A stretch of 64,000 nucleotides of DNA from Camelus ferus (taxonomy: Eukaryota), in assembly GCF_009834535.1 (NCBI RefSeq), contig NC_045696.1:82152001-82216000 (forward strand), given 5' to 3'. The position numbers and the translations under genes were made by a program. Positions 1-55,880 of this stretch are shown in pieces. Under the pieces are notes generated by a model that was given only the letters and a program-made list of their open reading frames with translations, was not told the origin of the DNA and made no database searches. How positions within the stretch are numbered: the stretch's first letter is position 1; each line of letters starts with the position of its first letter.

Positions 1-13
1 CTTGGTAGTTTTT

Positions 14-117
14 TGGGTTTTTTTAAATTCTTTTAATGGAGGTACTGGGAATTCAACGCAGTACCTTGTGCATACTAAGTATGTGGTCCACCAACTGAAC
101 TATATACCCCACCCAGC
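14..117 (-). mobile_element. tRNA-derived SINE (camelid Vic-1-like)
   Basis: Reverse complement gives ggggtatatagttcagttggt...cttagtatgcacaaggtac...cccagtacctccattaaaa. TSD cttggtagttttt at 1-13 and 118-130. Confidence 0.8.
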
Positions 118-3100
118 CTTGGTAGTTTTTAAAATACACCTGTAAAATGGGAATAATGAGGCATATCTCAAAGGGTGTTGTAAGGATTAAAGGAAATCAT
201 GTGTGAAATATGCTTTACACTATACCTGGCCCAAAGGAAGGACCCAGTAAATAGTAGCTGTTGTTTTTACAGCAAACTCCTGCTTATTCTTAGGTGTTTG
301 ACACTTTACAGATTGTCTAAATAATTAAATATTCTGGCTCCTACATGTAAAACATGAGAAGTGTTTACCAAGTTTTAGATAGTTAAGTGACTGTCTCTTC
401 CACTAGACTCAGCTCTCTAGGTGTAGGACCCATGTATTATTCACTTTCATCCTCAGGGTCTGGCAGAGTGCAGCTCACAGTCTTTAAAAAAAGTCACATT
501 GAATATAACAAAATACACGGACAGTTGAAGGTCTGAGCATTGCTTTTATGATTATAAAACGTTTAGGACACTGGTCTATAAGCAATTTACATGAAGTGGG
601 TATGGTGTTTGTGTTTACCTTTCTTGGAGACCTCATTCAACAGACACTTATTAGGTACCTCCTGTAAGGAAGGGATTGTGGGCTGGGTGCCTCACCGGGG
701 AATAAGGCAGACACAGCTCCTATGCCCAGAGTTTGTGTTTAACAGGGGAGACACCTTTGCATGACTACTTACAAAATTACATAAGTATAAATGGAGGAGA
801 AGCACGGGACTGAGAGAGCAGACAAGGGGCACTGAGCCCTAGCCTAGGGGCCTCTTGAGAAGTCATGTGCAGGGTGACAGACAGAGCAGGAAAAGTTGAA
901 GCTGAGCAAAGAGAGTGAAAGAGGATAAAGGACTGGCTTTCTGGGCACTGAATACAGCCCAGCCAGGATCGTAAGGAGACAACATAAAATGTTGGAGGAA
1001 CCGAGAGAAGGATGGTTTGACTGGGTCTGGGGAGGGGGAACAGCAAATTGTGATCTGCAGTTGAAGTCAGCAGGGATCAGATCATGGCAAGCCACTGAAG
1101 GATTTAGAATTTCATTCTGAATGCATGAAAAGACCCCCCACCAAAAGCTGTGACTTCTAGAATTTGCTTCAAATGATTCAAGAATTTTGGAGAAAGTGGG
1201 TGGAGTATATATGAGACAAAGTTGATTATTGTTGAAACTGTGTGATGGGTACATGGAAGTTTATTAAGCTCTCTATTTTGTAAATATTTAAAATTTTCAA
1301 AAAAAAAAAAATCCCTCCAGCTACAGTGAAGAGAAAGAATTGAGAACAGATGTGAAGAGACCTGACTTGGCTATAGAACAGGTGAAAAAGAAGACAGTCT
1401 TGAACTAAGGCAGTAGCAGTAGAATTTGAGGGACGTGAATAGATTCTAGTGAAAATTAAAAACTTGAATAGATAGAATTTGGTGATTGATTATATGTAAG
1501 GGAGAGAAGGAGGGAGATATGAATGACTCTTTGTCTTCTGGTTTGAGCAGTTAGGTGGAGAAGCTCTCATGAGAATGTGTGGCCTGCAAAGGGAAGGTTC
1601 AGGTATAGTCTTAATACTTCCTCCCAACTCTATCTACCACCTCAAGCTTTAATGTAATTCAACAAACATGTGCTGCCTTCCTACCATGTGTTAGGCACTA
1701 TATTGGGAGATGTGGAGTAGGCTAAAGAGGAACATGCAGTTATAAATACAGGATACCATTAACTGAGTGTCTGTGATGGGAGAGGCATTTTGCATACATT
1801 ACCCATAATCCTCACAGCATCCCTGCAAAGTAGGTATTATTAGGCCCATTTTATAGATGAGGAAACTGAGGTCTGGAGAGCTTATGTAACTTGCCAAAAG
1901 TCACAGCAGGTGTGAGATGGAAGTCGAGTCAATTTTTTTGTGATCTTTCCAGTGTATGATACTGCCTCACAGGAGTGCTAAAAAGGCTGGTGAAGATGTT
2001 CCAAAGACAATTCTATCCATGTCACAGTTGTTTTTCTCGGACTTGTACAGTTTCATGATTCAAAGGGATTATAATGCTAATAGGCTGCCTGGAAACTAAT
2101 GTATGAAAATTTTGAGACAGGTCAAGCCAGATCATTGCCGCCATCATAAAAAACCACAATTATCTCTTAATCAAGTTAAACTGTCTTTTCCCAGATGGTA
2201 TCTTCAGCCCTTTGAATCCAATTACTGGAATAATGTTCCAGAGTTTTATGTGCTTCTTCCCTGCGGCACAGGACCATAATAGTTTCAAGACGAGCAGCAG
2301 ACAAGATACCTAGTACTTTCTCTTCCCTGCTGTGACTCCCGAGACTCCACAAAATGACTGTTTGTCAGCCATATGCCTGCATTTACTTACTGTTTTAGTC
2401 TAGGCAATTATTTAGGCAGTAAAATACCCAAACTAATCCAAAAGTTAAGTCTGTTTCCATGACATGAGATGAAGTGCCCTTTTGCCCCTTAACTTTTTTA
2501 ATTATGGAAAATTTTAAACATGCAAAAAATAGACTAGTATAATGACCCCCCCCCCATGTTCTTATCACCCAATTTCAACAATTATTAACTCATGGCTAAG
2601 CTTATTTCATCCATACCCACCCACTTCCTCCCACATATTTGCTCAGAAGCACATCCCAGATCCCGTATCACTTCATCCGTAAATATTTCAGTATGTGTCT
2701 TTAAGAGATAAGAACTCGTTGGGGGCCGAGTGTTTTGTCAAGCATTTCCTGAGACTGGTTTGTGGGAACATTTACCAAGAAATGGCTCAGATGTCTTTCA
2801 GAAAGCCGCACTGGGAGAGGTGGGAGGTGAGGTCAGAGACCCGGGCGCCGGTGGGTGGTGAGCCCTGGGGGAGTATGTGAGTGGTCCAGGCGGCCCGGCG
2901 CCAACCAGGGAGTCGGGCCCACACTTTGTGAAAACCACCATGTCAAATGTTGGCCCATACTCCTTCTTGTTAGCTCTCTCCTTTCTTGGTGAATTTATCA
3001 ATGTTTCTTCCCATGAGTCAGATAGTGTATTAGTGGCCCCAGTGGTGGAAACTCGGCAGAGGTGACAACGTGGTGGCTGCCTCTTGAAACGCCTGCCTCA

Positions 3101-4487: not shown

Positions 4488-5023
4488 TATTGGCTAGTAG
4501 GGTGGGAGCTGGACTAGAGATTAAGATCCTCACATCACTGGGCAGCCTTTGAGAGTACCTGATGAGCAAGGAATTGACCCATACAGTACCTGGGTGGACA
4601 CTGGTGTCAGGGATATTGCTGCCTGCGTCCCTGCCAATGCCGTTCACCTCACCTTCCAGTCCTACCCACCAGGTGTCTCGTGTCACCTTCCTGTAAAGAG
4701 AAGAGATGTTTCATGAAACAGAGTCTGTTGATGACAATTGATGGAACCAGAGAGCAGGAGGCTCCAAGGGGCAGAGCAGTGACAGCTGGAATCAGGCAGA
4801 AGGGAGGCCGGGTGGAGACAAGGTGCCAGGAGGGCAATGATGAGGCAGCAACTCTGGCGGGAAGGGAGACAGATGCACAGCAAGGAAGGGCCTATAGCAG
4901 GGGTGGTCCCTGAGCACGGGTGAGGGGGCAGGGAGCATGCTAGGCTCACAGAAGGGCTACTGTGGCTACTGGGGAGCATTTGTGACCTACCTTAGAAGTC
5001 CCTGAGCAAAAAGGAGGGCCTTA

Positions 5024-5298
5024 ACAGAAATAGACTCACAGACAGAGAATACAGACTTGTGGTTACCAGAGGGGTGGAGGGTGGGAAGGGATAGACTGGG
5101 ATTTCAAAATTGTAGAATAGACTACACTGTATAGCACAGGGAAATATACACAAAATGTTATGATAACTCACAGAGAAAAAAATGTGACAATGAGTGTGTA
5201 TATGTCCATGAATAACTGAAAAATTGTGCTGAACACTGGAATTTGACACAACATTGTAAAATGATTATAAATCAATAAAAAATGTTAAAAAAAAAAAA
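5024..5298 (+). mobile_element. Young, severely 5'-truncated L1 3' UTR with poly(A)
   Basis: Nearly identical to ~11718-11980. Perfect TSD aaaaaggagggcctta at 5008-5023 and 5299-5314. Confidence 0.95.
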
Positions 5299-7546
5299 AA
5301 AAAGGAGGGCCTTAGGGTTGGGCTCCAGGTAGTTTTGGCACTTGAGTCTGCGCCAGACCACTTTGTTTCTCCCAGTCTCACTATTATTGTGATTTGGCGC
5401 TGGAATGAGGAATGGGGTAGAAGCGGGAGTCCAAAAGCCAAGCATGTGGTGGAGCTGACTGTCACATCAGAAGTCTAGTCTGCTTCTCAGCTCTGAGTTG
5501 CTGAGGTGGATGCTGTGGGTTTGAGAGCTAGGACTTTTTAATCAGGAGGGTTGAGATCTCCCATTGCTCAGAGGAGAGGGTGACTCAAAAGCAACAAATC
5601 CTTCCACGTGGGACATGTCATGGCCAGCTTGTTTTCCATCTAAACACCCAAAGTCTTAAAGGTGATCATGTGGTGTTTTCCCCCCTCTAATAGACAGGAA
5701 ATTACTATTTCAGAGCAAGAGACCCACCTCTTTGAATCTCCTGGTTCTTCAAAGCAGCAATTAAAGACAGCGGCTTGGGACAGCACCAGTTCAGCCCAAG
5801 TCGCCTCCAGGATGCTTGCTGGCGGCAGCCCTGGAGGAATCATCTCTGGCTTGCAAGAAACCAGTTTACCTGAGGTCTGAGCTACTCTCCAAAATCGCAT
5901 GCAGGCAGCTAGTGCAGGCCAGCTCGCTCAGGAATCCTGCAGCTAGGTGGCTCTTCGAACATTTTTCCTGTCTTTTGGAGATGGCTCATAGCTGGTGCTC
6001 TCAGACCTCTGCCTGAGTTGAGCGGCAGGCCCTGTGGGTAATCAGTCATTTCTTCATTAATTGGGCACTTCCTTTGTGCTCAGTACTGTGCTGGCTGGTT
6101 TGGGTAGAAATACAGTGAAAAAAGCATTAGGATGGGAGTTGGGAGACCGGGGTTCTATCCCTCTGGCTCCACCATTAGCTAGTAGCATGACTTTTGCAAA
6201 GTCATTTAATCTGTCTGTGCAAATGTTTCCTCATGTGTAAAATGAGAGAAGTAGACTCTGTATCTTTAATATCTCCTCCATTTCTATAATTTTAGATTCT
6301 GAGAAGTAGAAAAATCATATCTAGAGATTTGAATTGAATATCCACTAAGTGCAAGATATGGTGAAAATGTTAATTCCCCAAATCCCTTGGTTAAAACATT
6401 AGGGAATATGATTTTGAGTTTATAACATAAATGAGACTTCCAAATTATGCGACTTAATTAACAAAATGTTCTACCCAGAAGAGACCTGACATAGGTGTTG
6501 GTTAGGTGTTGGTCAAGCAGAGGGCTGAGAGTCCCCACAGCTCTCCTGCCTATGTCTCGGAAGTTGTATCTCATGCATGACTCAGGCTTAGATCTCTGGA
6601 TTCACTTAAGCAACAACCGACTCAAGTTGAGTTAAGCAAGAAGGTGAAGTACTTTGGCACATGACACTGAAATGGCAAAGGATGGGCAGGGTCTGGCACA
6701 GGTTGATCCAGGAATTCAGTTCTGTCCCCAGGAGTTGGCTTCTCTCCATCTCTTGTCTGCTCATCTCCACTTGTCCTCATTCTTGGGCTCCATGTGGTGG
6801 CGAGATGGCTGCCAGGAGCTCCAGGCCCCTGCTGACCCACACTGGCACACAGGTCCTGGAATTCACCGTGATTAGACTAAGTTGGGAATGACTTACAATA
6901 AGAAGTGATGTCTGAGCTGGAACTTAAAGTGTGAGAACTTGTGAGTTGTTGGTGGGACAGAGGAAATAGCCCAGGCAGGGAGAAGAAAATATGAAAGCTT
7001 GGTGTGTTTAGGGAAATCCAAAACTCCAACTCATCAGAAGCACGTGTGGTAGGCTCTGGGGGAAGTGAGTAGTGACGTGGCGAATTTTTATCCAGAATTT
7101 TAGACAGTGCCCGTATCCAGCTCCACTGTTTTGGCAAAAAACGTTCCTTCTAATCTACCTACTTCACTTGAATTCTTTTTATGGGTTGAAAATGTCACTG
7201 AATAAACTGCAAAAGCTTGACTGAGTAAGACTACCAACCCTAGAGTTATCAAGTTATATTAAGTTTTAGGACAAGTAGCCAATGAGTTCATATTTCCAGT
7301 CCAAGCCCTTGGTCCGTTTAGAAAGGGAGAGTGTCAGTGGACGTTTCCACCCTGTTGGGAGGGAGTCATTGGAGGACCTGGGGGTGATGTTCACCTTTAA
7401 ACCTACTGAGGCCTGGATTATTTTTCTGTCTTGGCTTTGGCTCCCCAGGAAGCAGGCCTTGAGATAAGGATTTGAGTACATGTAGATTATTGGGCAGTGA
7501 CCTCAGGAAATATCAACTGAGGAATAGGAGAGTGAGACAAAGAAAA

Positions 7547-8017
7547 TGTTTTGGGTTGAATTTTCTCCCCCCAAAATCTATAGGTTGAAGTCCCAACCCC
7601 CAGTACCTCAAAATGTGACTGCATTTGGGAATAGGATATTACACATGTCATGACTTAGGTTAGGATGAGGTCATATGCGGCAGAGTGGGCCCTCGTCCAA
7701 CATAACTCATGTCTTTATCAAAAGGGGAAATGTGGACACAGACATGCACACAGGTAGAACACCACGTGAGCATGAAGGCGGAGATTAGAGTGATATTTCT
7801 ACAAACCAAGGACACCAAGGATCACCAGCAAACCACCAGAATCTAGGTTAAAGGGATGGAACAGATTTTTTTTTTCATAGCATTCAGAAGGAACCAACAC
7901 AGCTGACATCTTGATCTTGGACTTCTAGCCTCCAGAACTGTGAGACACTACATTTCTGCTGTTTAAGCCATCCAGTCTGGGGGGACTTTATTACGGCAGT
8001 CCCAGCAGACCAATACA
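7547..8017 (+). mobile_element. MaLR LTR (MLT1B/C-like)
   Basis: tgttttgggttgaatt...gttgaagtcccaacccccagtacctca...cttctagcctccagaactgtgaga...ccaataca. Confidence 0.8.
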
Positions 8018-8080: not shown

Positions 8081-8222
8081 AAAACTTTTTCTTCAGGGGG
8101 GAGGTAATTAGATTTGTTCGTTTGTTTGTTTGTTTAGAGGAGGTACTGGGGATTGTTTGTTTAGAAGAGGACCTCATGCATGCTAAGCATGCGCTCTACT
8201 ATTTGAGCTACACCCTCCCCTC
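8081..8222 (-). mobile_element. tRNA-derived SINE (Vic-1-like) with disrupted B box
   Basis: ggggagggtgtagctcaa..gtagagcgcatgcttagcatgcatgaggtcct on the minus strand. Degenerate TSD at 8064-8080 and 8223-8239. Confidence 0.85.
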
Positions 8223-8299: not shown

Positions 8300-9510
8300 C
8301 AGATACAACTCAACAATAAAAGGACAACCCAATTTAAAAACAGGCAAGGATAGATATTTCTCCCCAAAATACATGCAAATGGCCAATAAGTACAAGAAAC
8401 GATGTTTAACATCTGTCTTAGTCTGTCCCAGCTGCTATGACAGAATACCATAGAACAAATGGCTTAAACAGACATTAATTTCTCACAGCTCTATAGGCTG
8501 GAAGTCCAAGATCAAGGTGCCAGCGTGGTCGGGTTTTTGAAGGCCCTCTTACTGTTTTGCAAATGACTGTCTTCCTGTATCTCACGTGGAGGAGAGAGAG
8601 GGGGCTAACTCTCTTCCCCTATTCTAATAAGGACATTAATCTCAACATGGAGCTCCACCTCCATGACCCAATTACCTCCCGAAGTCCCAGCCTCCAAATA
8701 CCATCATATTAAGGCTTCAGCATGCGGACTTGGAGGAACACATTCAGTCCACAGCAAACATCATTAATCATTAGGGAAACGCAAATCAAAACTGCAGTGA
8801 GGTACCTCTTCACGCCCACTGGGACGGCCAGTAATAAAAAAGATGGACAACAGTAAGTGTTAGTGGGGATTTGGAGGAATTGGAACTGGCATACATTGCT
8901 GGTGAAAATTTTGGTGCAGCTGCTTTGGAAAACAATTTTCCAGTTCCTCAAAAAGTTAAACAGTTATCATATGACCCAGCAATTCCACTCCTAGGTGCAT
9001 ATCCAAGAGAAATAAAAACATATGTCCATACAGAAGTGTATGTGAATGCTCGTAACAGCATTATTCAGTCTAGCCAAAAGTGACAACAACCCGAATGTCC
9101 ATCAACTGATGAATGGATAAACAAAGTGTGGTACATCCACAGAATTTATGCAGCAATAAAAAATAATAAAGTACTGATACATGTGACAACATGATTAAAT
9201 CTTGAAAACATATTAAGTGAAAGAAGCCAGGCACAAAAGGCTACACTTTGTATGATTCTGTTTATATGAAATTTCCCTAAAGACAAATCCATAGAGACAA
9301 AAAGCAGATTAGTGGTTGCTAGGGGCTGGAGAAAGGCTGGAATGGGTGTGGCTGCTGATCGGTACAGGGTTTCTTTTTGGAGTGATAAAAATGTTCTGGG
9401 ATTAAATAGAAGGGATGGTTGCACAACTATACAAATATACTAAAAACTGCCAAATTGTGCACTTTAAAAGTGTGAATTTTATAGTGTATAAATTATATCT
9501 CAATAAAAAA
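8300..9510 (+). mobile_element. Old L1 (L1MB-like) ORF2 end and 3' UTR, interrupted by an MLT1A-like LTR
   Basis: Decayed ORF2 motifs (YDPAIPLLGAYPREIKTY); ends ctcaataaaaaa. Boundaries approximate. Confidence 0.8.
8414..8756 (-). mobile_element. MaLR LTR (MLT1A-like) nested in the L1
   Basis: tgtcttagtc...ggctggaagtccaagatcaaggtgccagc...cattcagtccacagca; aacatc on both sides. Confidence 0.8.
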
Positions 9511-10899: not shown

Positions 10900-11986
10900 G
10901 CACAGCAAAGGAAACCAGAAATAAAACAAGAAGAAAACCTACGGAATGGGAGAAAATTTTTGCAAGTGAAACCGACAAAGGCTTGATCTCCAGAATATAT
11001 AAGCAGCTCAGCTCATACGACTCAATAAGAAAAAAATAAACAACCCAATCCAAAAATGGGCAGAAGACCTAAACAAGCAATTCTCCAAGGAAGACATACA
11101 AATGATCAAAAAGCACATGAAAAAATGCTCAGTATCACTAATTATCAGAGAAATGCAAATCAAAACTACAATGAGGTATCACCTCACACCAGTCAGGATG
11201 GCCGTCATTCAAAAATCCACAAATGACAAATGCTGGAGAGGCTGTGGAGAAAGGGGAACCCTCCTACACTGCTGGTGGGAATGCAGTTTGGTGCAGCCAC
11301 TATGGAAAACAGTGTGGAGATTCCTCAAAAGACTAGGAATAGACTTACCATATGACCCAGGAATCCCACTCCTGGGCTTGTATCCAGAAGGAAATCTACT
11401 TCAGGATGACACCTGCACCCCAATGTTCATAGCAGCACTATTTACAATAGCCAAAACATGGGAAACAGCCTAAATGTCCATCAACAGGTGACTGGATAAA
11501 GAAGATGTGGTATATTTATACAATGGAATACTACTCAGCCATAAAAACCGACAACATAATGCCATTTGCAGCAACATGGATGCTCCTGGAGAATGTCATT
11601 CTAAGTGAAGTAAGCCAGAAAGAGAAAGAAAAATACCATATGAGATCGCTCATATGTGGAATCTAAAAAACAAAAACAAAAACAAACAAACAAACAAAAA
11701 CAAAGCGTAAATAAAGGACAGAAATAGACTCACAGACAGAGAATACAGACTTGTGGTTACCAGGGGGGTGGAGGGTGGGAAGGGATAGACTGGGATTTCA
11801 AAATTGTAGAATAGACTACACTGTATAGCACAGGGAAATATACACAAAATGTTATGATAACTCACAGAGAAAAAAATGTGACAATGAGTGTGTATATGTC
11901 CATGAATAACTGAAAAATTGTGCTGAACACTGGAATTTGACACAACATTGTAAAATGATTATAAATCAATAAAAAATGTTAAAAAA
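10900..11986 (+). mobile_element. Young 5'-truncated L1 (ORF2 C-terminus, 3' UTR, A-tail), camelid-type
   Basis: ORF 11102..11473 is the ORF2p C-terminus ([19 protein letters not shown]...[18 protein letters not shown]). Frameshift near 11461. Perfect 17-bp TSD agaaattaaaaaaactg at 10883-10899 and 11987-12003. Confidence 0.95.
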
Positions 11987-12003
11987 AGAAATTAAAAAAA
12001 CTG

Positions 12004-19670: not shown

Positions 19671-20882
19671 GATCTAGGCATTTGCTTAAAACAAGATGAG
19701 ACCAAAGTATGGTGATCTGACTCCAGAGAAACTCAGCCCATCCTGCTCTTTCTGTCATGCTGAGATAGAGATTATGAGCCATTTGGACAATCCTAAACCT
19801 ACAAACTTAAGATGCTCTCTCTGAAAACTTTATCTGAATGGAAAAGCTATGTGATTTTCTTTAGTTTCAAAGGGTCTCTGGGCTTGGTTGGAAAAGTGAA
19901 GTAAATGCATTTGGACCTACTCAAAAACTTAAAACTAAATGCTGCAGACAATGGCTTAAGAGATTGCTAAGGAAGAAAACTTCATTTCTTTGTGTGGTTG
20001 CCTGCAGACATATCCACTAGCATAGGATTTTGGTTATCATAACTCTTAGGATATGGTCTGTAACGCTGTGAGATCCTTTCTAATGTTTGGTGACAAGGAT
20101 CCATAAAAGAGGCAAACTCTTCATCAGAATTGTTCTCTAGGAATTTCTCTTTGGTTTACTGGTCTTGGTTCTAACTGGAAGCAGATGGTTCTTAAATTAA
20201 TAAATTTTGAGGAGATACTATACAAAGACGTGGGTGTAAGGGAGCCACGAGAGGAAACACAATAGCTTCAACAACTCCGGGCTAGAAGCAGCAGACCGAC
20301 ATCACCCCTTGGCCAGAAGGGGAGTGGCAAATCCAAGTAGTGAAGGCAAGTCTGGAGGATGTGGTGACCTCTGACTATTGAGGCAGCCCACTGCGGGAGA
20401 GCTGAGAGAAGAGGTACTCTGACCATCCTCACATCTCCGGCCAGGACACTCCCTAGGACACCCACTCAGAAGCTAAGGGGCGAAGGAGCCCATTGCTGTG
20501 GCCTATGCATCAGTCTTTTGGGGTTAGAGAGCAGAGCGGAACTGGAGAGGTAGACATTTGACAAATGCCTACCATAGCAATTTTCACAGTGTTTGGTGGT
20601 CTAAGAGGGCAAAATATATGTATTTTTTTTTTAATTCATGGCTATGCCTAAAATTCTGGCACATGGTAAGTGCCTGGTATTACTGAATGAATGGACAAAG
20701 AATTGAACTATTGCTGAAACAGAGTAAAAGGAAACTACCACATACAATCAGGAACTAAGTATTTACTTTCAGACAGAGTAGATATTCAAAACGTTATGGA
20801 AATACTAGAGCATGATTCAGCAATAAATTCTATTCTGTAGATCAGGCAGATAAATGTCACAACTTAATAACACAGTTAAGTA

Positions 20883-21146
20883 TGGTCAATCCTCCTTATT
20901 TGTGGATTCTGTGTTTGCAAATTTGTCTGTTCTTTAAAATTTTCATGGTGCTTTCATAGTCACACACACAGTGGCGAAAAATTTGACTTGCCCAAGGCGT
21001 ATGTTCAGTTGAGGTTGACAAGGTGACATGCTGTGTTCTTGGTTCTGCTCTCATATTGTAAACAAGTGTCCTTTGCTCTACTAAGTACTATGTTTTTTGC
21101 ATTTTTGTATTTTTATTGGTGATTTTGCTGTTTAAAATGGCCCCCA
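20883..21146 (+). mobile_element. Tigger4-like (TcMar-Tigger) DNA transposon, left part
   Basis: Preceded by TA. Starts gtcaatcctccttatttgtggattc and ends ttgctgtttaaaatggccccca, as in the recalled Tigger4/Zombi consensus. Confidence 0.75.
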
Positions 21147-21240
21147 GGAGGGTGGTTGTGGCTCAGTGGTAGAATGTGTGCTTAGCATGCACGAGGTCCT
21201 GGGTTCAATTCCCAGTACCTACTAAAAAATAATTATAATA
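21147..21240 (+). mobile_element. tRNA-derived SINE (Vic-1-like) at the head of a larger insertion
   Basis: A box tggctcagtgg and B box ggttcaattcc, then cagtacct and an A-rich tail. Confidence 0.9.
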
Positions 21241-22030
21241 ATTGTGAATATTCCTTGAGTTAGTGCACAGAAAGCACTTTACATAGTGCCTGCAACAAAG
21301 AGAGCCATAGCAGGTAAGTGAAAAGAAGTGGCTTTCCTTCCGTGTGTGTGGGAAGAAATAAAACACCAGCTAGTTACCTTTAAACGAGGTGGGTGGCTTC
21401 AGAGTTGGCATCTATCCCTCTGGCAGGAGGCCTCCGATAGGAAGCAGGCAGATCAAGGCTGCTGTCCACTAGCCTGTCAACATACCTTCAACATACCCAA
21501 AAAGCAATCTAGTTACAACTAGACTACCAGAGAGAAAGACTCACTTTTGTCCACCAATCACCTGCCAGCTTAGTACCCCCCAACCCGGGATTCCTGCAGC
21601 CAACAAACTGAGCAATCTAGACTCCTGTTGATAAAAATGAACACAAAACAAAAAGCTAACAGGCACAGTAGATGAGGAAAAGTTCTTTCAGAAGAATGCC
21701 AGCCAAACCTGAAGAAGAAATGAGAAAAACCACCATCTTCCTCACCATAATACTGAAATAACTGATTCAAGCCAAAATCATCAATGGATTTATAAATAAT
21801 TGGGTGAAGAGCTGACGGGAAACTGGATTTTCCCATGATGCCAAAGTATCACTTCACTGATTATGTGTTAATCACTAGGAAGAAAACATTACAATGGAGG
21901 AATTAGTCTGTCACCACTCAAACCTACTGTTTAATCTTGTCATGATCAATAGTGGGACATATGTAGGCCAGAAACTATGCGCCTTCTGCTGTGTACAGCA
22001 TCATTTCTGAATTATTCATGCACAACAAAT

Positions 22031-22353
22031 AAAGGCCCCCAAATGTACTGCCAAAATGCTGCCTAGTGTTCCTAAGTACTAGAAGGCTGGAATGGGCCTT
22101 ATGGAGAAAGCACGTGTTAGACAAGCTTGGGTCAGGCACAAAGTTATGGTGCTGTTGACCATATAGTAAATCAACAAAACAGAAGGACACCTAAAACAAG
22201 TTTATGTATTGATTAATTGATGAAAATGTGGCGAGAGGCTAACAGAACAATAGCCCCAGTATTTCCACTAGGAGCAATGGTTCAGTATTTGCTAATCCCG
22301 TGTTGGTGGTGACTTTATAGACTCTAACTACCACGAATAATGACAATCAACTG
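22031..22353 (+). mobile_element. Tigger4-like DNA transposon, right part
   Basis: Resumes at ggcccccaa...ctagtgttcctaag. Ends ccacgaataatgacaatcaactg+TA, an imperfect inverted repeat of the left end. Confidence 0.75.
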
Positions 22354-22528
22354 TACTTGCTGTTTTCCAGTTCCTAATAAAGATTCAAAAAAGAAAATTC
22401 AATTTGCAAAAGACACAAGATGATTTTTATACAGTTAGCAGCTAATTGGTACACATAATGTAAAACCAGAAGAGGGAAAAACATTAAAACCCATTACTAC
22501 TGCATAATTTCAATGTGATACATTAAAA

Positions 22529-22534
22529 TTTATT
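22529..22534 (-). terminator. Candidate distal poly(A) signal of SEC62
   Basis: AATAAA followed by GU/U-rich sequence (gggttttaatgtttttccc), just before repeat-rich DNA resumes. Confidence 0.5.
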
Positions 22535-24929: not shown

Positions 24930-25396
24930 TTATGATTTTTCGAGTGAGGATTTAGCTGTCTCTCCATCGTTGTCTTCTTCCTCCTCTTCACAATCCCCAT
25001 CTGTCTGCTGTTCCAGTTCCTCTTTTGTGATCATTTCAAAATCATTCCCATTTCCACTACTGTGTTGGGATCGGTCATCTTCCCTCCTATCACTGTCTGT
25101 GTCTGAATGCCGTTCTCCACCTGAGCCTTCTGTTCCATGATTTCCTGGTCCTACTTTTCCCTCTTCATCTTCCTTTTTCTCACTGTCTGACTTTTCCTCA
25201 CTGTCGGACTTCTGCTGCTTTTTGGTTTCAGATTTTTCATCTTTCTTTAAGTCTGCTTTTGGTCCTTTATATTCATGTGTGTACAGAGGCCTGAAGGAGT
25301 CAATGAAGCCCACGTCAGCAGTCAGATTTGGCAAGAACCAAAAATGGTGCCTTCCTCCAGTTATGAGCCAAATGATGAGAAACAGAATGCAACGAG
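24930..25396 (-). CDS. SEC62: SEC62 coding exon 8 (ARCILFLIIW...NDFEMI...KSSLEKS*), with LC3-interacting motif NDFEMI at 25029-25046
   Basis: Acceptor tctcccgcag|CT; TAA at 24932-24930; 467 coding nt. The 8 exons sum to 1197 nt = 398 aa + stop. Confidence 0.98.
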
Positions 25397-27872
25397 CTGC
25401 GGGAGAAAAATTTCTCTAATTGAATAATTCAAGTGACTCAGACAGCAGGGAATATTTGTTAATGGGAAAACAAAGTTTATTATTTGCATACCACATGCAC
25501 CTGAAATATAAACAATTAAATCCTGACTAGTTTAGCAGCTATCGACAGTATTCTAGGCACACAGCATTCTGCTCTGAACTTGAGGGCGTAACGCTACAAT
25601 GCCATTCAAAAACTTACTTTCATTTTTTTTTTTTAGTCTGGGTGCTGTTTCATGGAGATACTTATGATTTACGCACTTTGCTATGTTATAGTTCAATAAG
25701 CACAGGTGCCAGCTGGACCTTGAAGTATACATAAGAACACGGTAGAAGAAAGAGGAAAATAAATGCAAGTAAGGGATGAAAGATACCTTAAGAAGCCTTT
25801 AAAAATGAAAAAGCAGGGCTGAATCATGACTTCTTTAGAACCTAGGCATTTTTGCCTTTGTAAGGCAATTCTTCCATTAAAAAAAATATTAAAAATTAGG
25901 CTTTTTACAACCATATTGGTATAAATATAATCCCACACAGGTTCATAACACATACACATGTAATAATATTTTATATATTACATATTATTACATATAAATA
26001 TTACATAATATGTAACACATGTAATAATATTTACACATGTAAATACATGTGTACTTGATTTTAAAAGAAATGAAAATAAAATCATTTCTGTGGCCCCTAA
26101 AAGTCCAAGGCATGTGCCTACTCTGCCTAAAGGATATCTTCTAAGGAAAAATACTTTTGAACAATAAGAGAACATTTTCCTAGAAGTTATAACTTTCTTA
26201 AATAAATATATAATTTCTGCTTATTGAAGGACCAGCTATCTCCCAATATTAGGAAACAATACAATGCTAATGAAGGCCAGATTGCTTCAACAAATAGGTT
26301 CGAGGTTACTCTTTTATAGCAATATATGACAAAACTGTATTTAGATAATGGAAGAAATTAAGAATTTTAAAGTTTACAATAATGAGCTATCAGGAACACA
26401 AACCTCAAAACTTCATATAGTTTTCTCTTAATTTACCAAATACAAAGAGCTGAGTGATTTGCCTAATTTTCCTGTTCCCCCCCACCCCGAGGTCATGATT
26501 ATGTGAATGTTATGAACTAATCAATTGTGACAGGTTTTCGGTTTTGTTTCAGTTTTTGTTTTCTTTACAAATAACTGTATTACTATTTTTAAATAAGGCC
26601 TAAAAAAAGGTCATCAATGCATCTTCCATTATTTTGCTTAGGTTAGATAAAAAGAAATGGTTATAGCTCCCTTGACTTTTATAAAGCAGTAATTTCTATT
26701 TTTCATAAAAGAACATAAATATTCTGAAAGACTCTGTATACATCAGTGTCTTTTGTGGTACAAACAGAAAAGGCAAATATGCTTGAAATTATGGAATAAA
26801 TAAGTAAATAAATCCCAGTGATAAAAAAGAAACAATGAACATCTTTTAAGGAGGCTGCATACAGCATTATGTACGATAGGATTTAAAGGGTTTTAAGACA
26901 GACAATTCGTAATATGAAATCTTGCCTCAAATCCATGAAAAAGCAGTATCAAAATGGCAAATCTAAATTCTCATTCCATATACAAACTGGGTGTAACAGA
27001 ATTCTAACGTTTTTTACTGTTTTTCTCTATGTGGCAGCAGATTACCAGGAGCCAAAGAGGGAGAATCATGGGAAAACCACTGTGATGTATAAAGTCATAC
27101 TGTTTCTATTCTAAAAGTGACAAACTTACAAAATTGTCAAAGGTCCTATTTTAAACAGAAATACTAACAATACATATTCCAAGTAGCACCAAAGATAATT
27201 TTGACCAATATATAATACTTCATGGGATAATATAAATCTCTGATTTGCAACTGGGGTACAGATCAAAACCCTTTGAAAGTTAATTTAGAATTTCATTTTT
27301 CTAAGAGAAAAAACAAAAATGTTCAGTTTATTTTCTGATTTATTTAATTCATGGGACTATTTAATGCACAATGCTACTTAAATCCATAGTATATTTAAAA
27401 TGAAAAATTATAGGAAATACTACTGAAGAAATAATTTAAAAGGCAAAACAAGATAATAACCATAAATTATTGAGAATACTGGTTTAAATAAAAGATAACC
27501 AAGTAGGTTAATTCTATTCAGTGGAGTTAAACGTTTGCTGAAAAATTTCAAAGAGCTTCTAAATTGTCATGGGTTTGGGAGCCAGAAGACATCAGTCTCA
27601 TTAGTGTATCTAATGCCAGATCAAAGTTTGTGGCTTCTCATTTTTGATGCAGGTAGTACACTACCACCAGTTACCTGCTTCACAGTCTTAGATACTATTT
27701 CTTGGCCTACAAATGTACTATATTACATGCAGAAGCTTCCGGGGCAATTTTCAAGGTGACTTAGCTAGAGGAAGGAAAACTGAAAGGTGGGTGAAAAAGG
27801 CTTCACACACAGTCAGAGATCCCAGGAAAAAAGGAAGCCCATAAACATGAACCGAATGAAAACGCTACATGA

Positions 27873-27923
27873 TTTGACACAACATTGTAAAATGACTATA
27901 ACTCAATAAAAAAAATGTTAAAA
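27873..27923 (+). mobile_element. ~50-bp L1 3'-terminal fragment in SEC62 intron 7 (antisense to the gene)
   Basis: tttgacacaacattgtaaaatgactataactcaataaaaaa matches the L1 tail. TSD gaaaa(c/t)gctacatga at 27858-27872 and 27924-27938. Confidence 0.85.
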
Positions 27924-29300
27924 GAAAATGCTACATGAGTTCCTGGGTCCATGGATGGTGGCACCAACTTAGGACGACACCTTAATACCCAGGGTGAAGG
28001 GATGTGCAGAGGGAACCTGCTTAAGGCTGTAGCAGTAATGCTTTATAAATATAAGCATCTATTACATTACATACCATAGAATCCCAGAAATGCACCCAGT
28101 TCACATAATCTTGGTTAGATTATGTCCTCTAACAAAACAACAGATATTAGGTCAGTAATGTGAGTGTTTTAAAAATTTTTTATAAAGAAGTACTCCTATA
28201 TGTCTTGATGGAAAAGTTGATTTGTCATGTGATGAAAATAATCAGAACTTAGTACCATACACCAACATAAACTCTAGATGGATCAAAGAATTACATATAA
28301 GGTTAAAAAAAAATCACTAAACAGCTTTAGATGTGCTGAGAAAAAATCCTATTTCTTTCCCCAAATCAAAAACTAAATTAGACCAGTTCATCCTTTATTG
28401 GGAAATTGTTAAAGACTAGGATTTTAAGCAAAATATTATTTGTTGTTTTTCTCATAGTTAGTAATATGTTCACTGTGAAAAATATACACAGATGTAAAGA
28501 AGAACATTAAAGTCATTCATAACTACCACTACCATTTATAGTTAGGCGTACTTCCTTATAGTCAAACCCTCTTTAGCAGAGTATTTCCATTTCAAAAATA
28601 TCTTCCTAATGATGTAAGTAAAATATATTTCATTATCTTAATTTTATTGTTTGATACTAGTGATGAGCATTTTCATACATTTATTAATCATTTGTTTTTA
28701 ATTTCATCTTTTGAATTGGGTTATTTTCATATTGTCTTATTTTTAGCTATGGAAGACCCCACTCATCCAGAAATGTAAAATAACATTATTTACATTTTCT
28801 TGTTGATTTTTAAAAAACATTTTAAAACTTTTTAATGCAATGAGAATTTATTTTGGCACATGGTGCAAACTGACTTTTCCCCAAAACGGCAAATCAATTG
28901 TCTAGAATAATTTACTGTACAAAATGGAAATGCTGAATACAAGTTTCATTTGCCTCAAGTCAAAATATAAAAATGCTTACTGAAAGTATTATGTTAACAA
29001 ATGATCGATCATTGTAAAAATATTAAAGTTCCTGTGGTAGTTAAATTTTAAAGCTACTTATATCTAGTTGCATAAGACATATTAAATCCTTTTCTCAGAC
29101 CAGACCACATCTAATTAAGTATACATGCTACTTCAAGCCTGAGTCAGTTTTGGGATAAGATCAAAAAGTAGGCCCATATAATTCTTGATTCATCAATATT
29201 AATTTTGCTATTAAGCTTTACTGAAGCTCCAGATTACAATCCAAACTGCTCAATATCTCTTAGTAAGTCTGGGGTCAGTCTTACTAATAACAGTACTTAC

Positions 29301-47300: not shown

Positions 47301-48734
47301 GATCACCTTTACAATATTAAATGCAGCTGACACTGTAAAAACTGTTTTTTTAAGGCCAAAAAATGTACCATGCATGTAAACATAAGTCCAGTAAGTACTA
47401 ATCTGACAACTCAATACAAATCTTAATAAAACTATTATGTATCCATACCTGACCAATAACACTAAACTTTGAAAGACTAGGAATAGTACAACTAGAAACT
47501 TCTTCCGTAATAACCTTATGCCTTGGTTTATGACATGTCTGAACTTGGGGGAATTTGTCTCTTTCTGATCCCCTTCTGCACTCTTTTTGAAACTATTTCT
47601 GCCCAATTTCAAAATTCCAAATTTACTGATCACTGGCATCTTTTCTCCCCTAGTACTTCAAAGTTTTCAGGAGAATTTTAACTTGCATAGCTTAAAACAC
47701 CTGTGGTGAATGCCAGTTAAATGATAAACTTTTTTTTTAATGGGGAATAAGACATTAGACAGGAAGTCATTCTAAGCAATGAAACAATAAGGAACAGAAA
47801 GACAATGATGAGTGTAACAATTTGTGACTAGGTATATTAACAATTTATAACATGCTATCAATTTATGATGATATACGAAGGTTTCTAGGCACAGGAGCTA
47901 ATAATGAGACTAAACACCCTGAAATTCCATATATTTAATCCTGTTGGCAGAGAGAAAAACAACAGGAGGAAAATTGCAGGAAAGAAATACAGAGGTGACA
48001 TGCATGTGGAATGAGGGATGCTATGTAGGTTATGAGGATGACACACTGGCAGATGAAAGGTTTCTGGGCGCGACTCGCTCGTTACAGTACCAACGGGGCT
48101 GTGTTTATTTACACTGTGTCGCCTGAAAGAAAGCCAGAAGTCTTCAACTGGACTCTTAACTAACCCTGAAGAGAAAGGAGGGTACACGCAACCGAACATC
48201 TGGATAGGCAGATCGCCGTCTGGGCCCCCGGGGCAGCTGACCAAACACAAATCACTCCCCCTCCTCCTTCTATTTGCGCACAAAGAACAGGCAGCTTTAG
48301 GTCAGTCCTCCGCCTCCTACCTATTACCGCGGCCTTAATTTCGGGATAGCAAAGGAGAAAGGATGGGGCGAAGAAGGGAGGGGAGGAGCCCGGGAGGGTC
48401 GGTGTCTGAGCGCTGAAGACGCGGACCTCCCAGCGGAGGCCGGGGTCGGCGCCGCCACCGGAACCCAGGGCTGGCGGCCGCGCCTCCGCGGCGGATTCCG
48501 AGCGCGGCGCCTCCTGCCTTCCACCGCTGCCCCAGCACCTCCGTCTTAGTCTCCACCGTCACCAGAACAGCCCTCCCTCAGGCCCCTCACAGCGACGCAG
48601 CCCGCAACCGGCGGCCTCGCGGCGGAACCCCACCCCACAGCGCCCTCGATTTCGCTTGCCCTTCCCGTGAGCTTCCCCTGCTTTTTTCACTTCCGAGCGC
48701 CCTAAGTCCCCTACCCCAGGCTCGGCTTTGCTAC

Positions 48735-48770
48735 CTGAATCCGCTTCTTGTGTCGCCTGCGTTCCGCCAT
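48735..48770 (-). CDS. SEC62: SEC62 coding exon 1 (MAERRRHKKRIQ)
   Basis: ATG at 48770-48768 in context GCCAACATGG; 36 nt; donor CAG|GTAG. Peptide matches the known SEC62 N-terminus. Confidence 0.98.
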
Positions 48771-48888
48771 GTTGGCCGCTCCGCCCGGTTCCCTCTGACG
48801 TGGAGCGAGTAGGGGGCGGTGGAAACCTCGCGAGAGCGCGTCGCGTGGCCCGTTATGTAACCTGGCTGCTGGCACCGGGGGAGGAGGG

Positions 48889-48951
48889 AGGCCGGCGAGA
48901 GGCCGGTACCCAGGCAGGCCGGCGAGAGGCCGGTACCCAGGCAGGCCGGCG
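48889..48951. repeat. 27-bp perfect tandem repeat, 2.3 copies (aggccggcgagaggccggtacccaggc)
   Basis: Read directly: 48889-48915, 48916-48942, partial 48943-48951. Confidence 0.95.
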
Positions 48952-51900
48952 GGCCTTGGCGGCGTCTTCTCTCCCAACTTTCCACGGCTCCTTTTACTGC
49001 GGGAACTGGAAATCTCTGGGACAAAAGAAAGTTGAGAAGTGGATCAAAGAACAGGAGAGCTGGAAAGAGTCCTTGTTCTCAAGCCTGACTGGGCATCTGA
49101 ATCACCTGGGAAGCTACTGAAATACAGATTCCTGGGGCCCCACCCCTCGGAGTACACTTAGGGTGGAGCCTTTCACAGAGGATTTACTGAGACCTATGGT
49201 GTTCTAGACGTCTCTGAGTGTGGCACTTGCTATCCTGCCAATGAGTCCTGCCCTATCCACGTGTGAATTTTTCTAACTCCATTTTAAAGATGGAAAAACT
49301 GAGACAACTGGGATGCAGCGATGTGAACTAATTTAACCAAGGCTCCACAGTTGGTAGAAGGCACAGCTGAGACCTAAGCCAATTATCTTTCCCTGTACAA
49401 TGTAGGTGATAGTCGAGCTCATCTGAAACACACTTTAGATTCCCCATTCCATTTTCCACGTTGTTTCTCAAAATGCGCCTTTAGAATCCAAGAGACAGAA
49501 CCCAGGGAAGTGCAAGTAACTAATAAGACGAATAGGAGAAATATTCTAAGAGTTGGAATGAAAAAGACTGCAGGGTACTTCTAGTTAACCATTGTCATTG
49601 TAGAGCTACTTAGAGCAAAGAGAATGGCTTTAAATTGCCAGTGTTTTTACATAGAAATTGTCATGACTTTATGGAGATTTTAAAGCATTTTAAACGGTAG
49701 AAAATTCGGAAAATACAAGAAAGTAAGATGAAGAAAGTAAGAATCCTTAATGCCACCGCCCAGAGATCTGTTACCATTTTAGTTTATTTTCTTCTACTAT
49801 TTATTCCTACTTTGTGTGTGTGTGTTTATGTTTCCCTCTTCCCTCCCAATTGAGATCATATTGCATAAGTAATATGGTAGTCTTTTTTTTTTCACTTAAT
49901 GTTATGATGAGCATTTATTATATAATTTAAAAACCAAGTTTCCCATATTGTAAATATAACCTAATAGCAATTAAATATGCAATTAAGGCAAATAGTGGCA
50001 TACCTATTTGATGCCTATTCTTTTACAAAGTAAGATAGCCAAAGTTCTTCTTTTGGACTATGCAATTCTGCACTCAAGGGACAGAATAAGTAAGTCATTT
50101 AGTTCCTTTCTCTTTTTATAATCTATAATTAGGGTGTGTGTTGTCAGAGAGTGGGTGAGAAAAAAAATGATTTGTACCAATTAACCCAAAACATAACACA
50201 GGATATGCAATGTCTTTATTTCCTTCAGTCCTTCTCCCCATCCAAAATGTTGATGGATGTGTTTTGTACTGTTTTATTCATTGGATTCTTTTCATAGGAA
50301 AGCTGGTTTATAAATAAAAATGCTATCGCATTTAATAGATGTTGAGTGCCCACCGTATGCAAAATGCCAGGGATGTGATGGGGAACAAAAATCCTTTGTG
50401 GTCAATGACTCATACTCTACTGCTCTACCACCTTCTTCTTCAGAAGAGCTTTAGTTTACTATGCCCAGGTTCTCACTAACTTTCACTCCTTAGACTACAA
50501 CAATTTGGTTTCTACCTCCATCATCCATTAATAAGTCCAGCTTCTTTTGTAACATCTTATTAAAGATTTGACAATATTGACCACTCCTTAATTTATTCTC
50601 CTTCTTTGGCATTTATGATACTGTGTTCTTCCTTCTGATTTCTCTTTGTCTCCTCTCTCTTTACCTAGCTCCTCAATGTTTCTGGCCACTATGCTTCCAT
50701 GCTCCTCTTCTTCCATTTTCTCTATGCATTCTGGGAATTCCTATTCATGCTTACAACTTAATTCCAAAATACTGCATAAACATTTATTTCTAGCTGTCTT
50801 CTGGATATCTCCACTGAATGTCCAATTAGAAATCACCATTTTCTCCACAAAACATGCCCCCTTTACTGTATTTTTAAACTCTGGTAACTGCATCACTCTT
50901 CACTTAATCACTCATGCTAGAAACCTTGTAGGTATCCCAACCATGCCAATCAGTAAGCAATGCTATTGATTTTACAACTGAGATGTTTGGAATTCTTCCC
51001 TTCCTCATCATTCGTACTGCCATTGCTTTGATCAAGTCTTTATCATTTCCTACCTGAACTATTAGTTGCAAAAGCCTCCTACTCAGTCTCCCCAACTCTA
51101 CCCTCTCTACACTCCAGGCCATCTTCCACTCCCTTGTTAACCGCCCCCCACCCCCACCCCATTACTCCAGTTTTGTACAGCAACATTAAGGATGGCTAAT
51201 GGTTGCACATATAACCCAAATGTCACATTTCTGGGTCCTCTTTCCATTTAATATTTATTTAAAAATAGCTCAAGCACTCTTCTTATCACTCCATTTATCT
51301 TTGATGGTGATAGTGGGAAGGAAGTTTCTCCTGGCTACTTTTTGTTCTGATTTCCCTTTGAATTTGCAATCTCATTCTTGTCATTTGACTTGTATTTCTT
51401 TCCCAAATGAAAAGCATTGCCCCTCTCTTTCTTTTGCCAAAGCAAAACATCTCTTTACCCTGGGTTCTGCCACTTTTTCTCCCTAGGGTTGTCTCTGAAA
51501 CTCAGAATTTCTTTTGCTGTGTAGAGTAGAGAAATTGAGGTCTTCACTCTTTACTGGATTCCTTTCAGTACATACGTGTAAAAACTCACTACCATGCTCT
51601 GCTAAACAAAGGGTTCTCTGATCTAGATCCCCTTTTTGGAGGACTGATGAATAGGTAGGGACTTGAAAAATTCAGTTTCCTGAGGCCTACCATCCTAGTA
51701 AGTGTAAGGGAATAGTTTATAGACATATACCTCCATTAATCAGATTTATGCAAACTGAAAACTGATACATTTAGTTTTTTGTTTTAAATAACACTTTTTT
51801 CTGGGTCCATTTTATATGTTAAGTATCTGTGTGACTATAAGTTGAAAAGAAAAAAATTGTAGGGAAGTATAGCAAATAATGGCCAGGGCGTTTTTGGGCA

Positions 51901-55139: not shown

Positions 55140-55880
55140 TTTTTTAAAATGTATTTAAATTTTTTTCAACTATTCATTTCGAAATACTTTCACTTAGGAG
55201 AAAGTTGAAAAAATAGTATGAAGAATTCCCATATACGCTTCACCCAGCTTCTACAAGTGTTAACCTCGTGTATAACCACAGTACCATTTTCAAAACGGGA
55301 CACTAACTTGACAGAGTACTACTAAGTAATCTGCAGACGTTATTTAAATTTTGTCATGTCCTACTACTTTATCTGCTCAGGATCCAATCCCTCATCTTAT
55401 GCTGCATTTAATTTTCATGGCTCATTTGTTAGTCCTTAATTTGGTACGGCCCTCAGTTTTTCTTCGTCTTTAACTCTTTGAAGAGTCTGGCCAGTTATTT
55501 TGTAAAATGTTGCTCATTTAGGTTTGTCTGTTATTTCCTCATGATTACATTCAGGTTGTGCATTTTTGGAAAGAATATCACAGAAGTGACGTCATCCCCT
55601 GCTCAGTATGTAGTTGATGTGATCGCTGAGTGAAAGTGGCATCTGCCAAGTTTCACCACTGTAAAGTTACAGTTCTTCTCTGTGAAATTAATTAGCATCT
55701 AAGGGGATACTTTGAAACAATTTAAATATTCTGCTTTTCATCATACTTTTGCCTACTCATTTTTAGCTATTTTCTCTGCCTGAAATAATTATTACTGTTG
55801 TGTTTGCCAAATGGTGATTTTCTATTGTCATTATTCCTTCTATATTTATTAATTGGGATACTATGGAATATTATTAATTG
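55140..55880 (-). mobile_element. Old L1 (L1MD/ME-like) 3' region
   Basis: aaagttg.aaaaatagta..aagaattcccatata..cttcacccag... typical of an antisense L1M 3' UTR. Boundaries approximate. Confidence 0.6.

Follow-up and report, generated by a model that had tools for sequence, protein, structure and literature searches.

The window (the whole 64-kb stretch of Camelus ferus DNA that was analysed) carries the SEC62 gene on its minus strand. Some 2.9 kb downstream of the stop codon of this gene, 882 bases in antisense orientation to SEC62 split a DNA transposon into two arms. This insert starts with a tRNA-derived SINE and continues with about 790 bases of complex DNA, neither SINE nor tail, that we call the cargo. 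It is bordered by a near-identical target-site duplication (TSD). The features of the locus are as follows.

20881 to 21146, plus strand: left arm of a TA-flanked, non-autonomous DNA transposon that looks like a Tigger-type element (TA at positions 20881-20882; the inverted repeat extends to about 20904)
21134 to 21146, plus strand: 5' copy of the TSD, AAAATGGCCCCCA, located behind GTTT in an L1 endonuclease-type site
21147 to 21223, plus strand: full-length body, with a G-rich head, of a simple SINE derived from tRNA-Ala(AGC) (Rfam, ARAGORN and two copies in the window)
21159 to 21169 and 21202 to 21212, plus strand: A box and B box of this SINE, both intact as read from the sequence
21224 to 21241, plus strand: short A-rich tail of the SINE, A6 and then AT-rich, with no TSD behind it
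21242 to 21320, plus strand: cargo part 1, with a splice donor CAG/GTAAGT at 21311-21319
21321 to 21689, plus strand: cargo part 2, with T4 at 21545-21548 and TTCTTT at 21683-21688; no relative in the window
21690 to 22026, plus strand: cargo part 3, derived from an old dispersed repeat that is interrupted mid-element at 22026; contains T4 at 21828-21831
22027 to 22033, plus strand: AAATAAA as the A-rich 3' junction, shared in part with the second TSD copy
22029 to 22041, plus strand: 3' copy of the TSD, ATAAAGGCCCCCA, identical to the 5' copy at 11/13 positions without gaps and with an exact core, GGCCCCCA
22042 to 22355, plus strand: right arm of the host transposon (inverted repeat; TA at 22354-22355)
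24930 to 25415, minus strand: reading frame that contains the last coding exon of SEC62 (Pfam Sec62, E 5.1e-18, and the list of open reading frames)

Minus-strand poly(A) signals are found to either side of the insert, among them those at 22529 and 21112. The latter is an AATAAA on the SEC62 strand (21112-21117), located in the left arm of the host just past the insert. If the SEC62 3' UTR were long and ended at this signal, the insert would lie inside the mRNA. The start of SEC62 coincides with a CpG island (48000-49000), where a short tandem GC-rich duplication is visible in the translated frames. A 57-base L1 3' stub, flanked by a separate TSD of about 15 bases, is located in a SEC62 intron at 27860-27940. 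It is 91% identical to a very young, 5'-truncated L1 3' end that the window contains at 4976-5320 (about 280 bases with a long A-tail and a TSD of about 16 bases). The latter shares 98.6% identity with the corresponding end of a longer L1 piece (11003-11999) located 6.7 kb away, which keeps the ORF2 C-terminal frame; such identity indicates recent L1 activity in the lineage.

The two arms of the host carry terminal inverted repeats that are in register from the TA dinucleotides and agree at 16/24 positions, a value equalled by 140 of 199,876 random TA pairs. The left and right flanks can therefore be considered as two halves of one element, whose length is about 576 bases after removal of the insert and of one TSD copy. 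The ATG contained in the left TSD copy reads MAP and the right arm continues APK in the same frame, which may be the start of a Tigger-type transposase remnant. A Pfam search with the host's three short frames (E up to 10) matched none of the three. We assume that, in the family consensus, one arm directly follows the other and that MER82 matches the host ends more closely than Tigger4 does; the host thus looks like a Tigger-type element that is MER82-like rather than Tigger4. Scans for the intact host junction returned one locus in genome contigs, none in viral contigs and two in metagenome contigs, and all three were rejected as chance, motif-only matches.

The left arm is interrupted at GTTT/AAAAT (21130-21138), an endonuclease-type site of the TT/AAAA kind. 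ATAAAGGCCCCCA is the best match to AAAATGGCCCCCA across 21147-22359, the runners-up reaching 9/13, and the 8-base core GGCCCCCA occurs on the plus strand only at 21139 and 22034 in the 64 kb. The probability of an 11/13 match by chance is 1.4e-5 per site, or 0.012 in 900 sites; in an empirical control, 116 of 4000 random 13-mers had such a match 100 to 1000 bases downstream. Its length of 13 bases lies in the range of about 7-20 bases usual for duplications around L1-mediated insertions, but the duplication taken alone is suggestive, not decisive. It is raised above chance by its location between paired halves of one host element. The near-identical duplication flanking the insert (8-base core exact, best match in 1.2 kb) and the L1-endonuclease-type site, both claimed in the first-pass annotation, are thus upheld.

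These data bear on one alternative, namely that no cargo was ever inserted and that native DNA lies between remnants of two copies of the host family, with a repeat that arose by chance. In its favour, the contiguity of the arms is presumed with the help of the inverted-repeat test, no intact host copy is present in the collections scanned, and a second cargo locus was found neither there nor in the window. However, the inverted repeats of the arms form a left-right pair whose register is set by the TA. Moreover, two deletions would need to share the same 8-13 terminal bases, and the SINE would need to begin at precisely that point. We consider this alternative extremely improbable.

The 5' part of the insert matches the Rfam tRNA model over its entire length (21152-21223, 44.6 bits, model positions 1-71 of 71); this is the only match at the gathering score in the 64 kb. 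ARAGORN likewise predicted a tRNA-Ala(agc) at 21151-21224. The 5' boundary of the insert falls within about 5 bases of the start of the tRNA model, in agreement with the earlier claim that the insert begins at the 5' end of a SINE. Two decayed relatives were found in the window at 26-105 and 8133-8219, and their G-rich heads resemble that of the insert. Body identity among the three copies is 50/69, 53/69 and 48/70, so that the family is not young. A genuine tRNA gene at the head of the insert was rejected, the 3' body and A-tail being common to the two decayed dispersed copies. The SINE head folds no better than its shuffles (z -0.22), and a 24-mer from it had no match in the genome contigs and viral contigs searched. 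We take this SINE to be of the vic-1 type and restricted to camelids. SINEBase lists vic-1 among the simple SINEs, as a camel element built like rodent ID and armadillo DAS-I (PMC3531059).

The two other copies in the window have features of their own. The one at 1-132 (minus strand) is decayed, belongs to the same tRNA-Ala type and adjoins a MIR-like stretch. It is flanked by a perfect 13-base TSD at TTTT/AAAAA and was used as a control; the TSD length and site type seen at the insert are accordingly typical of the SINE family. In the copy at 8110-8222 (minus strand), the B-box region is replaced by the element's own tail word, TCTAAACAAACAA, which is present twice, probably as a result of slippage or templated repair. 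No TSD was detected for this copy (8133-8219), the longest word having 7 bases. It lies between inverted repeats (7902-7971 and 8459-8524) that are likely to represent another DNA transposon.

As the first reading of this DNA had stated, the second TSD copy is not behind the SINE tail, where the longest word shared with the upstream flank has 5 bases. The cargo alone has no duplication of its own beyond a 6-base A/T word. Both observations weigh against events at the DNA level or in two steps, in which the insert would derive from a templated insertion, from a small duplication, or from insertion of the cargo followed by that of a SINE at the junction. The imperfect TSD and the absence of a poly(A) tail would be compatible with such events. 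Nevertheless, a two-step history leaves SINE and cargo each without its expected duplication, and a DNA event provides no reason for a start at the SINE 5' end or for a TTT/AAAA site with a 13-base duplication. Events of this kind therefore appear very unlikely to us.

The cargo is composite. Its first part may resemble the 3' end of MIR, but local tests did not bear this label out: the pairwise score was reached by 118 to 368 of 500 shuffles and is not significant, and a MIR profile built from the window copies (converged on two copies) did not match the insert. The unused donor CAG/GTAAGT reported in the first-pass annotation is located in this part. The second part includes a piece (about 21330-21605) previously described as LTR-like; this description was not sustained, since the piece has no relative in the window and its best nhmmer E value is 2.3. 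Better supported was the claim of an old repeat fragment at about 21690-22020. Positions 21711-21918 can be aligned with 55840-55635 (minus strand), a copy located 34 kb away, with 125 of 197 positions identical (63%). The score of this alignment is reached by none of 1000 dinucleotide shuffles and the locus ranks top among 349 tiles, whereas a window-wide nhmmer search gave moderate support (E 0.057). The match with this dispersed copy identifies part 3 as an old interspersed repeat, which we assume to be of the ancient L1 3' UTR type. The related repeat extends over 55515-55840 (minus strand) and served as a paralog control.

The paralog continues past 22026, where the cargo ends, and only AAATAAA separates this position from the TSD core. 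An A-rich end, as previously described, is thus present, but it accounts for no more than 7 bases after the last repeat-derived position. There is no long poly(A) at the 3' end of the insert; the nearest upstream AATAAA is at 21357, with none within 670 bases. The missing poly(A) may mean that the insertion was of the tailless kind or that its tail has decayed. The 3' end did not fall in any of at least four A-rich stretches that lie nearer to the SINE.

No second copy of the cargo was found within the 64-kb window, and its origin by local or tandem duplication there was rejected. A cargo 22-mer had no match in metagenome contigs, and blastn against plasmids and phages produced none. In 15 of 24 sequencing runs, covering three organism labels, all 76 sampled cargo words were present; 14 of these runs are possible sources of the DNA analysed here. 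Word shares from unaligned runs cannot separate this copy from a donor and were not used as support. The shares in RNA runs were 0.90 and 0.84 (one study), 0.32, 0.16 and 0.10, figures that do not separate SEC62 read-through RNA from DNA carry-over.

Altogether, the TSD, the site at which it occurs, the lack of a TSD behind the tail, the paired inverted repeats of the host and the interruption of the cargo in mid-repeat provide good support for a single retro-insertion by the L1 machinery, with a SINE at its start, which brought older foreign DNA into a younger DNA transposon. We infer that this single event involved an RNA intermediate and internal priming. A 5' boundary at the tRNA start is expected if the RNA began there and is unlikely for random truncation. 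Similarly, internal priming on a template that was not polyadenylated would account for a cargo that is cut where its paralog continues and that lacks poly(A) and a nearby upstream AATAAA (PMC5322556). The probabilities that we express in words for the different readings are matters of judgement.

The sequence of events that we favour would be the following. An RNA would start at the 5' end of a tRNA-Ala SINE with intact boxes, transcribed by Pol III at another locus, and would run through the short A-tail of this SINE and about 790 bases of old neighbouring DNA. L1 endonuclease would nick TTT/AAAA within an older Tigger-type element downstream of SEC62. Priming would occur on the short A-rich stretch inside the old trailer repeat, and not on the weak tail of the SINE itself. 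Reverse transcription would then proceed back to the 5' end of the RNA, leaving the 13-base TSD. The different parts of this scenario are not equally secure. We consider it probable that, at the putative donor, the SINE lay upstream of the cargo, so that the cargo was transduced. The chances seem to us evenly divided as to whether the SINE-headed RNA was made by Pol III read-through from the source SINE and primed internally. We are slightly less confident that the insert represents a long tailless SINE 3' transduction, produced by some 800 bases of Pol III read-through via weak terminators and by internal priming.

Terminators are a difficulty for this scenario. The sense strand of the insert contains T4 at 21545 and 21828 and no T5, that is, two runs of four or more T against 11 on the antisense strand. 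The first-pass annotation had counted these runs correctly and had presented their scarcity in favour of read-through, but it had missed the TTCTTT at 21683 and the argument itself is weak. Such poverty in T-runs is found in 55 of 1266 sliding 790-base windows and in 4 of 43 composition-matched windows, and is expected since the strand is A-rich. As evidence for Pol III read-through it is mild at best; as strong evidence it was rejected, being equalled by 45% of 2000 dinucleotide shuffles. The two T4 runs and TTCTTT even argue against clean Pol III read-through. According to one study, human Pol III is stopped almost fully by T4 and partly by T2VT3 motifs in vitro, while canonical Pol III stops are leaky in vivo, with Pol III occupancy in 3' flanks (PMC3141230). 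Another source describes TCTTT as a moderate terminator in SINEs and Alu RNA retroposition as efficient only with a terminator less than 40 bases from the A-tail (PMC9599045). In the cargo, 25 positions are one change away from a new T4, corresponding to 0.3-1.0 expected gains at an assumed divergence of 3-10%; some of the present terminators may therefore postdate the insertion.

Terminators would be of no concern if the template had been a Pol II RNA from the same donor arrangement, whether intronic, a lncRNA or an L1 read-through in an orphan-type transduction, that either started at the SINE or was 5'-truncated there. Pol II ignores Pol III terminators, and the unused splice donor fits an unspliced RNA. 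However, this origin requires that the RNA was by coincidence truncated no more than about 5 bases from where the SINE begins, and the insert has neither a poly(A) tail nor an AATAAA near its end. We therefore regard a Pol II template as unlikely.

Read-through of the T4 runs is also dispensable if the insert is a chimera, formed when L1 reverse transcriptase, working on an unrelated cellular RNA such as an intronic one, switched to a full-length SINE RNA or when the two RNAs were ligated. The first-pass annotation had not considered this possibility. The SINE would then never have adjoined the cargo in DNA, as in U6/L1 and Alu/L1 chimeras. The anatomy that a chimera predicts is the one observed here: the insert opens with a sense Pol III RNA of full length, has a single TSD and lies at a TT/AAAA site. 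A recent preprint describes 113 human Alu/LINE-1 cases, 88.5% of them sense and mostly full-length, but also indicates that full-length tRNA heads are atypical, tRNA/L1 chimeras being mostly antisense halves (10.1101/2025.02.02.635956). In the chimeras reported, the 3' part usually derives from mRNA or from young, polyadenylated L1 RNA, and template switching is described as largely a matter of U6 and U6atac (PMC4476161). The 3' partner here is ancient, tailless and unspliced, and it ends mid-repeat. We hold both the template switch or ligation itself, and the corollary that SINE and cargo were never neighbours in DNA, to be fairly unlikely, if conceivable.

The earlier proposal of a SINE 3' transduction is thus retained in part: a single L1-mediated insertion starting at the SINE and carrying older DNA stands, whereas the T-run argument contributes little. 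SINE-driven transduction is the leading mechanism, albeit unproven, and the locus is a good single candidate for it. The insert itself is a single fossil insertion with no known function. If the donor carries the SINE, the source copy will be named, and this would suggest that weak-tailed SINEs are the ones that transduce; if the donor is without it, the insert would be an unusual chimera of a SINE and a cellular RNA. If the transduction is real, the cargo would be a barcode for the source copy of a camelid SINE, and simple tRNA SINEs (ID, DAS-I and vic-1 types) would have a route to gain bodies and to move host DNA. A cargo present in several copies under the same head would even correspond to a nascent composite SINE subfamily.

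The candidate has to be viewed against a divided literature. 3' transduction is routine for L1, as stated in three reports (PMC13141329, PMC13756887, PMC13103737). Transduction of flanking DNA by Pol III SINEs is seldom observed and unsettled, and published claims conflict. Alu transductions were described as "not reported" in a 2016 article (PMC4862182). A T2T preprint proposes 386 high-confidence Alu 3' events and an AluSx3-WaluSat case (10.1101/2021.07.12.451456), and a short Alu-monomer transduction is also among the cases proposed. In a later curated screen, no transduction was confirmed among 118,489 full-length AluY: the 633 distant-TSD candidates were attributed to chance TSDs or degenerate tails, and 24 candidates with a possible source failed manual checks (10.1101/2024.04.29.591526). 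The explanation by degenerate tails does not apply here, because complex cargo of about 790 bases within an older element cannot be dismissed as a degenerate A-tail. In a survey of camelid repeats, MIRs are essentially the only SINEs recognised, and the single mention of transduction concerns L1 (PMC8605555). Another preprint uses the transduction phrase loosely, for elements that are merely flanked by SINEs (10.1101/150482). Our literature search, which covered few subscription papers, found no report of transduction by vic-1 or another tRNA-derived mammalian SINE.

Several known systems share part of the anatomy described here. The likeness of the SINE head to the camel simple SINE vic-1 concerns their common build, and relates to type description and not to a comparison with the consensus (PMC3531059). 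Tailless retropseudogenes are described as having no oligo(A) tail, internal priming at A-rich positions and a TSD, as the insert has in the reading favoured here (PMC5322556). They differ in being 3'-shortened RNAs, whereas the insert is 3'-extended far beyond the SINE. U6/L1 and Alu/L1 chimeras, like the insert, open with a sense Pol III RNA of full length and lie within a single TSD, but the 3' partner found here is neither a young L1 nor a processed mRNA and has no poly(A). In L1 and SVA 3' transductions, according to two reports, the element and its downstream DNA are likewise enclosed in one TSD at a TT/AAAA site (PMC13141329, PMC13103737). Their RNAs, however, are made by Pol II and carry a new poly(A) at the end, in contrast to the tRNA SINE head and the absence of poly(A) at the camel locus. 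The closest parallels are the proposed Alu 3' transductions, in which a Pol III SINE head and its flank also lie within one TSD (10.1101/2021.07.12.451456; 10.1101/2024.04.29.591526). Compared with these cases, the present insert is headed by a simple tRNA-derived SINE in a non-primate genome and is nested in a dated host element, and its cargo of about 790 bases is complex old DNA instead of a degenerate A-tail or a 64-base unit.
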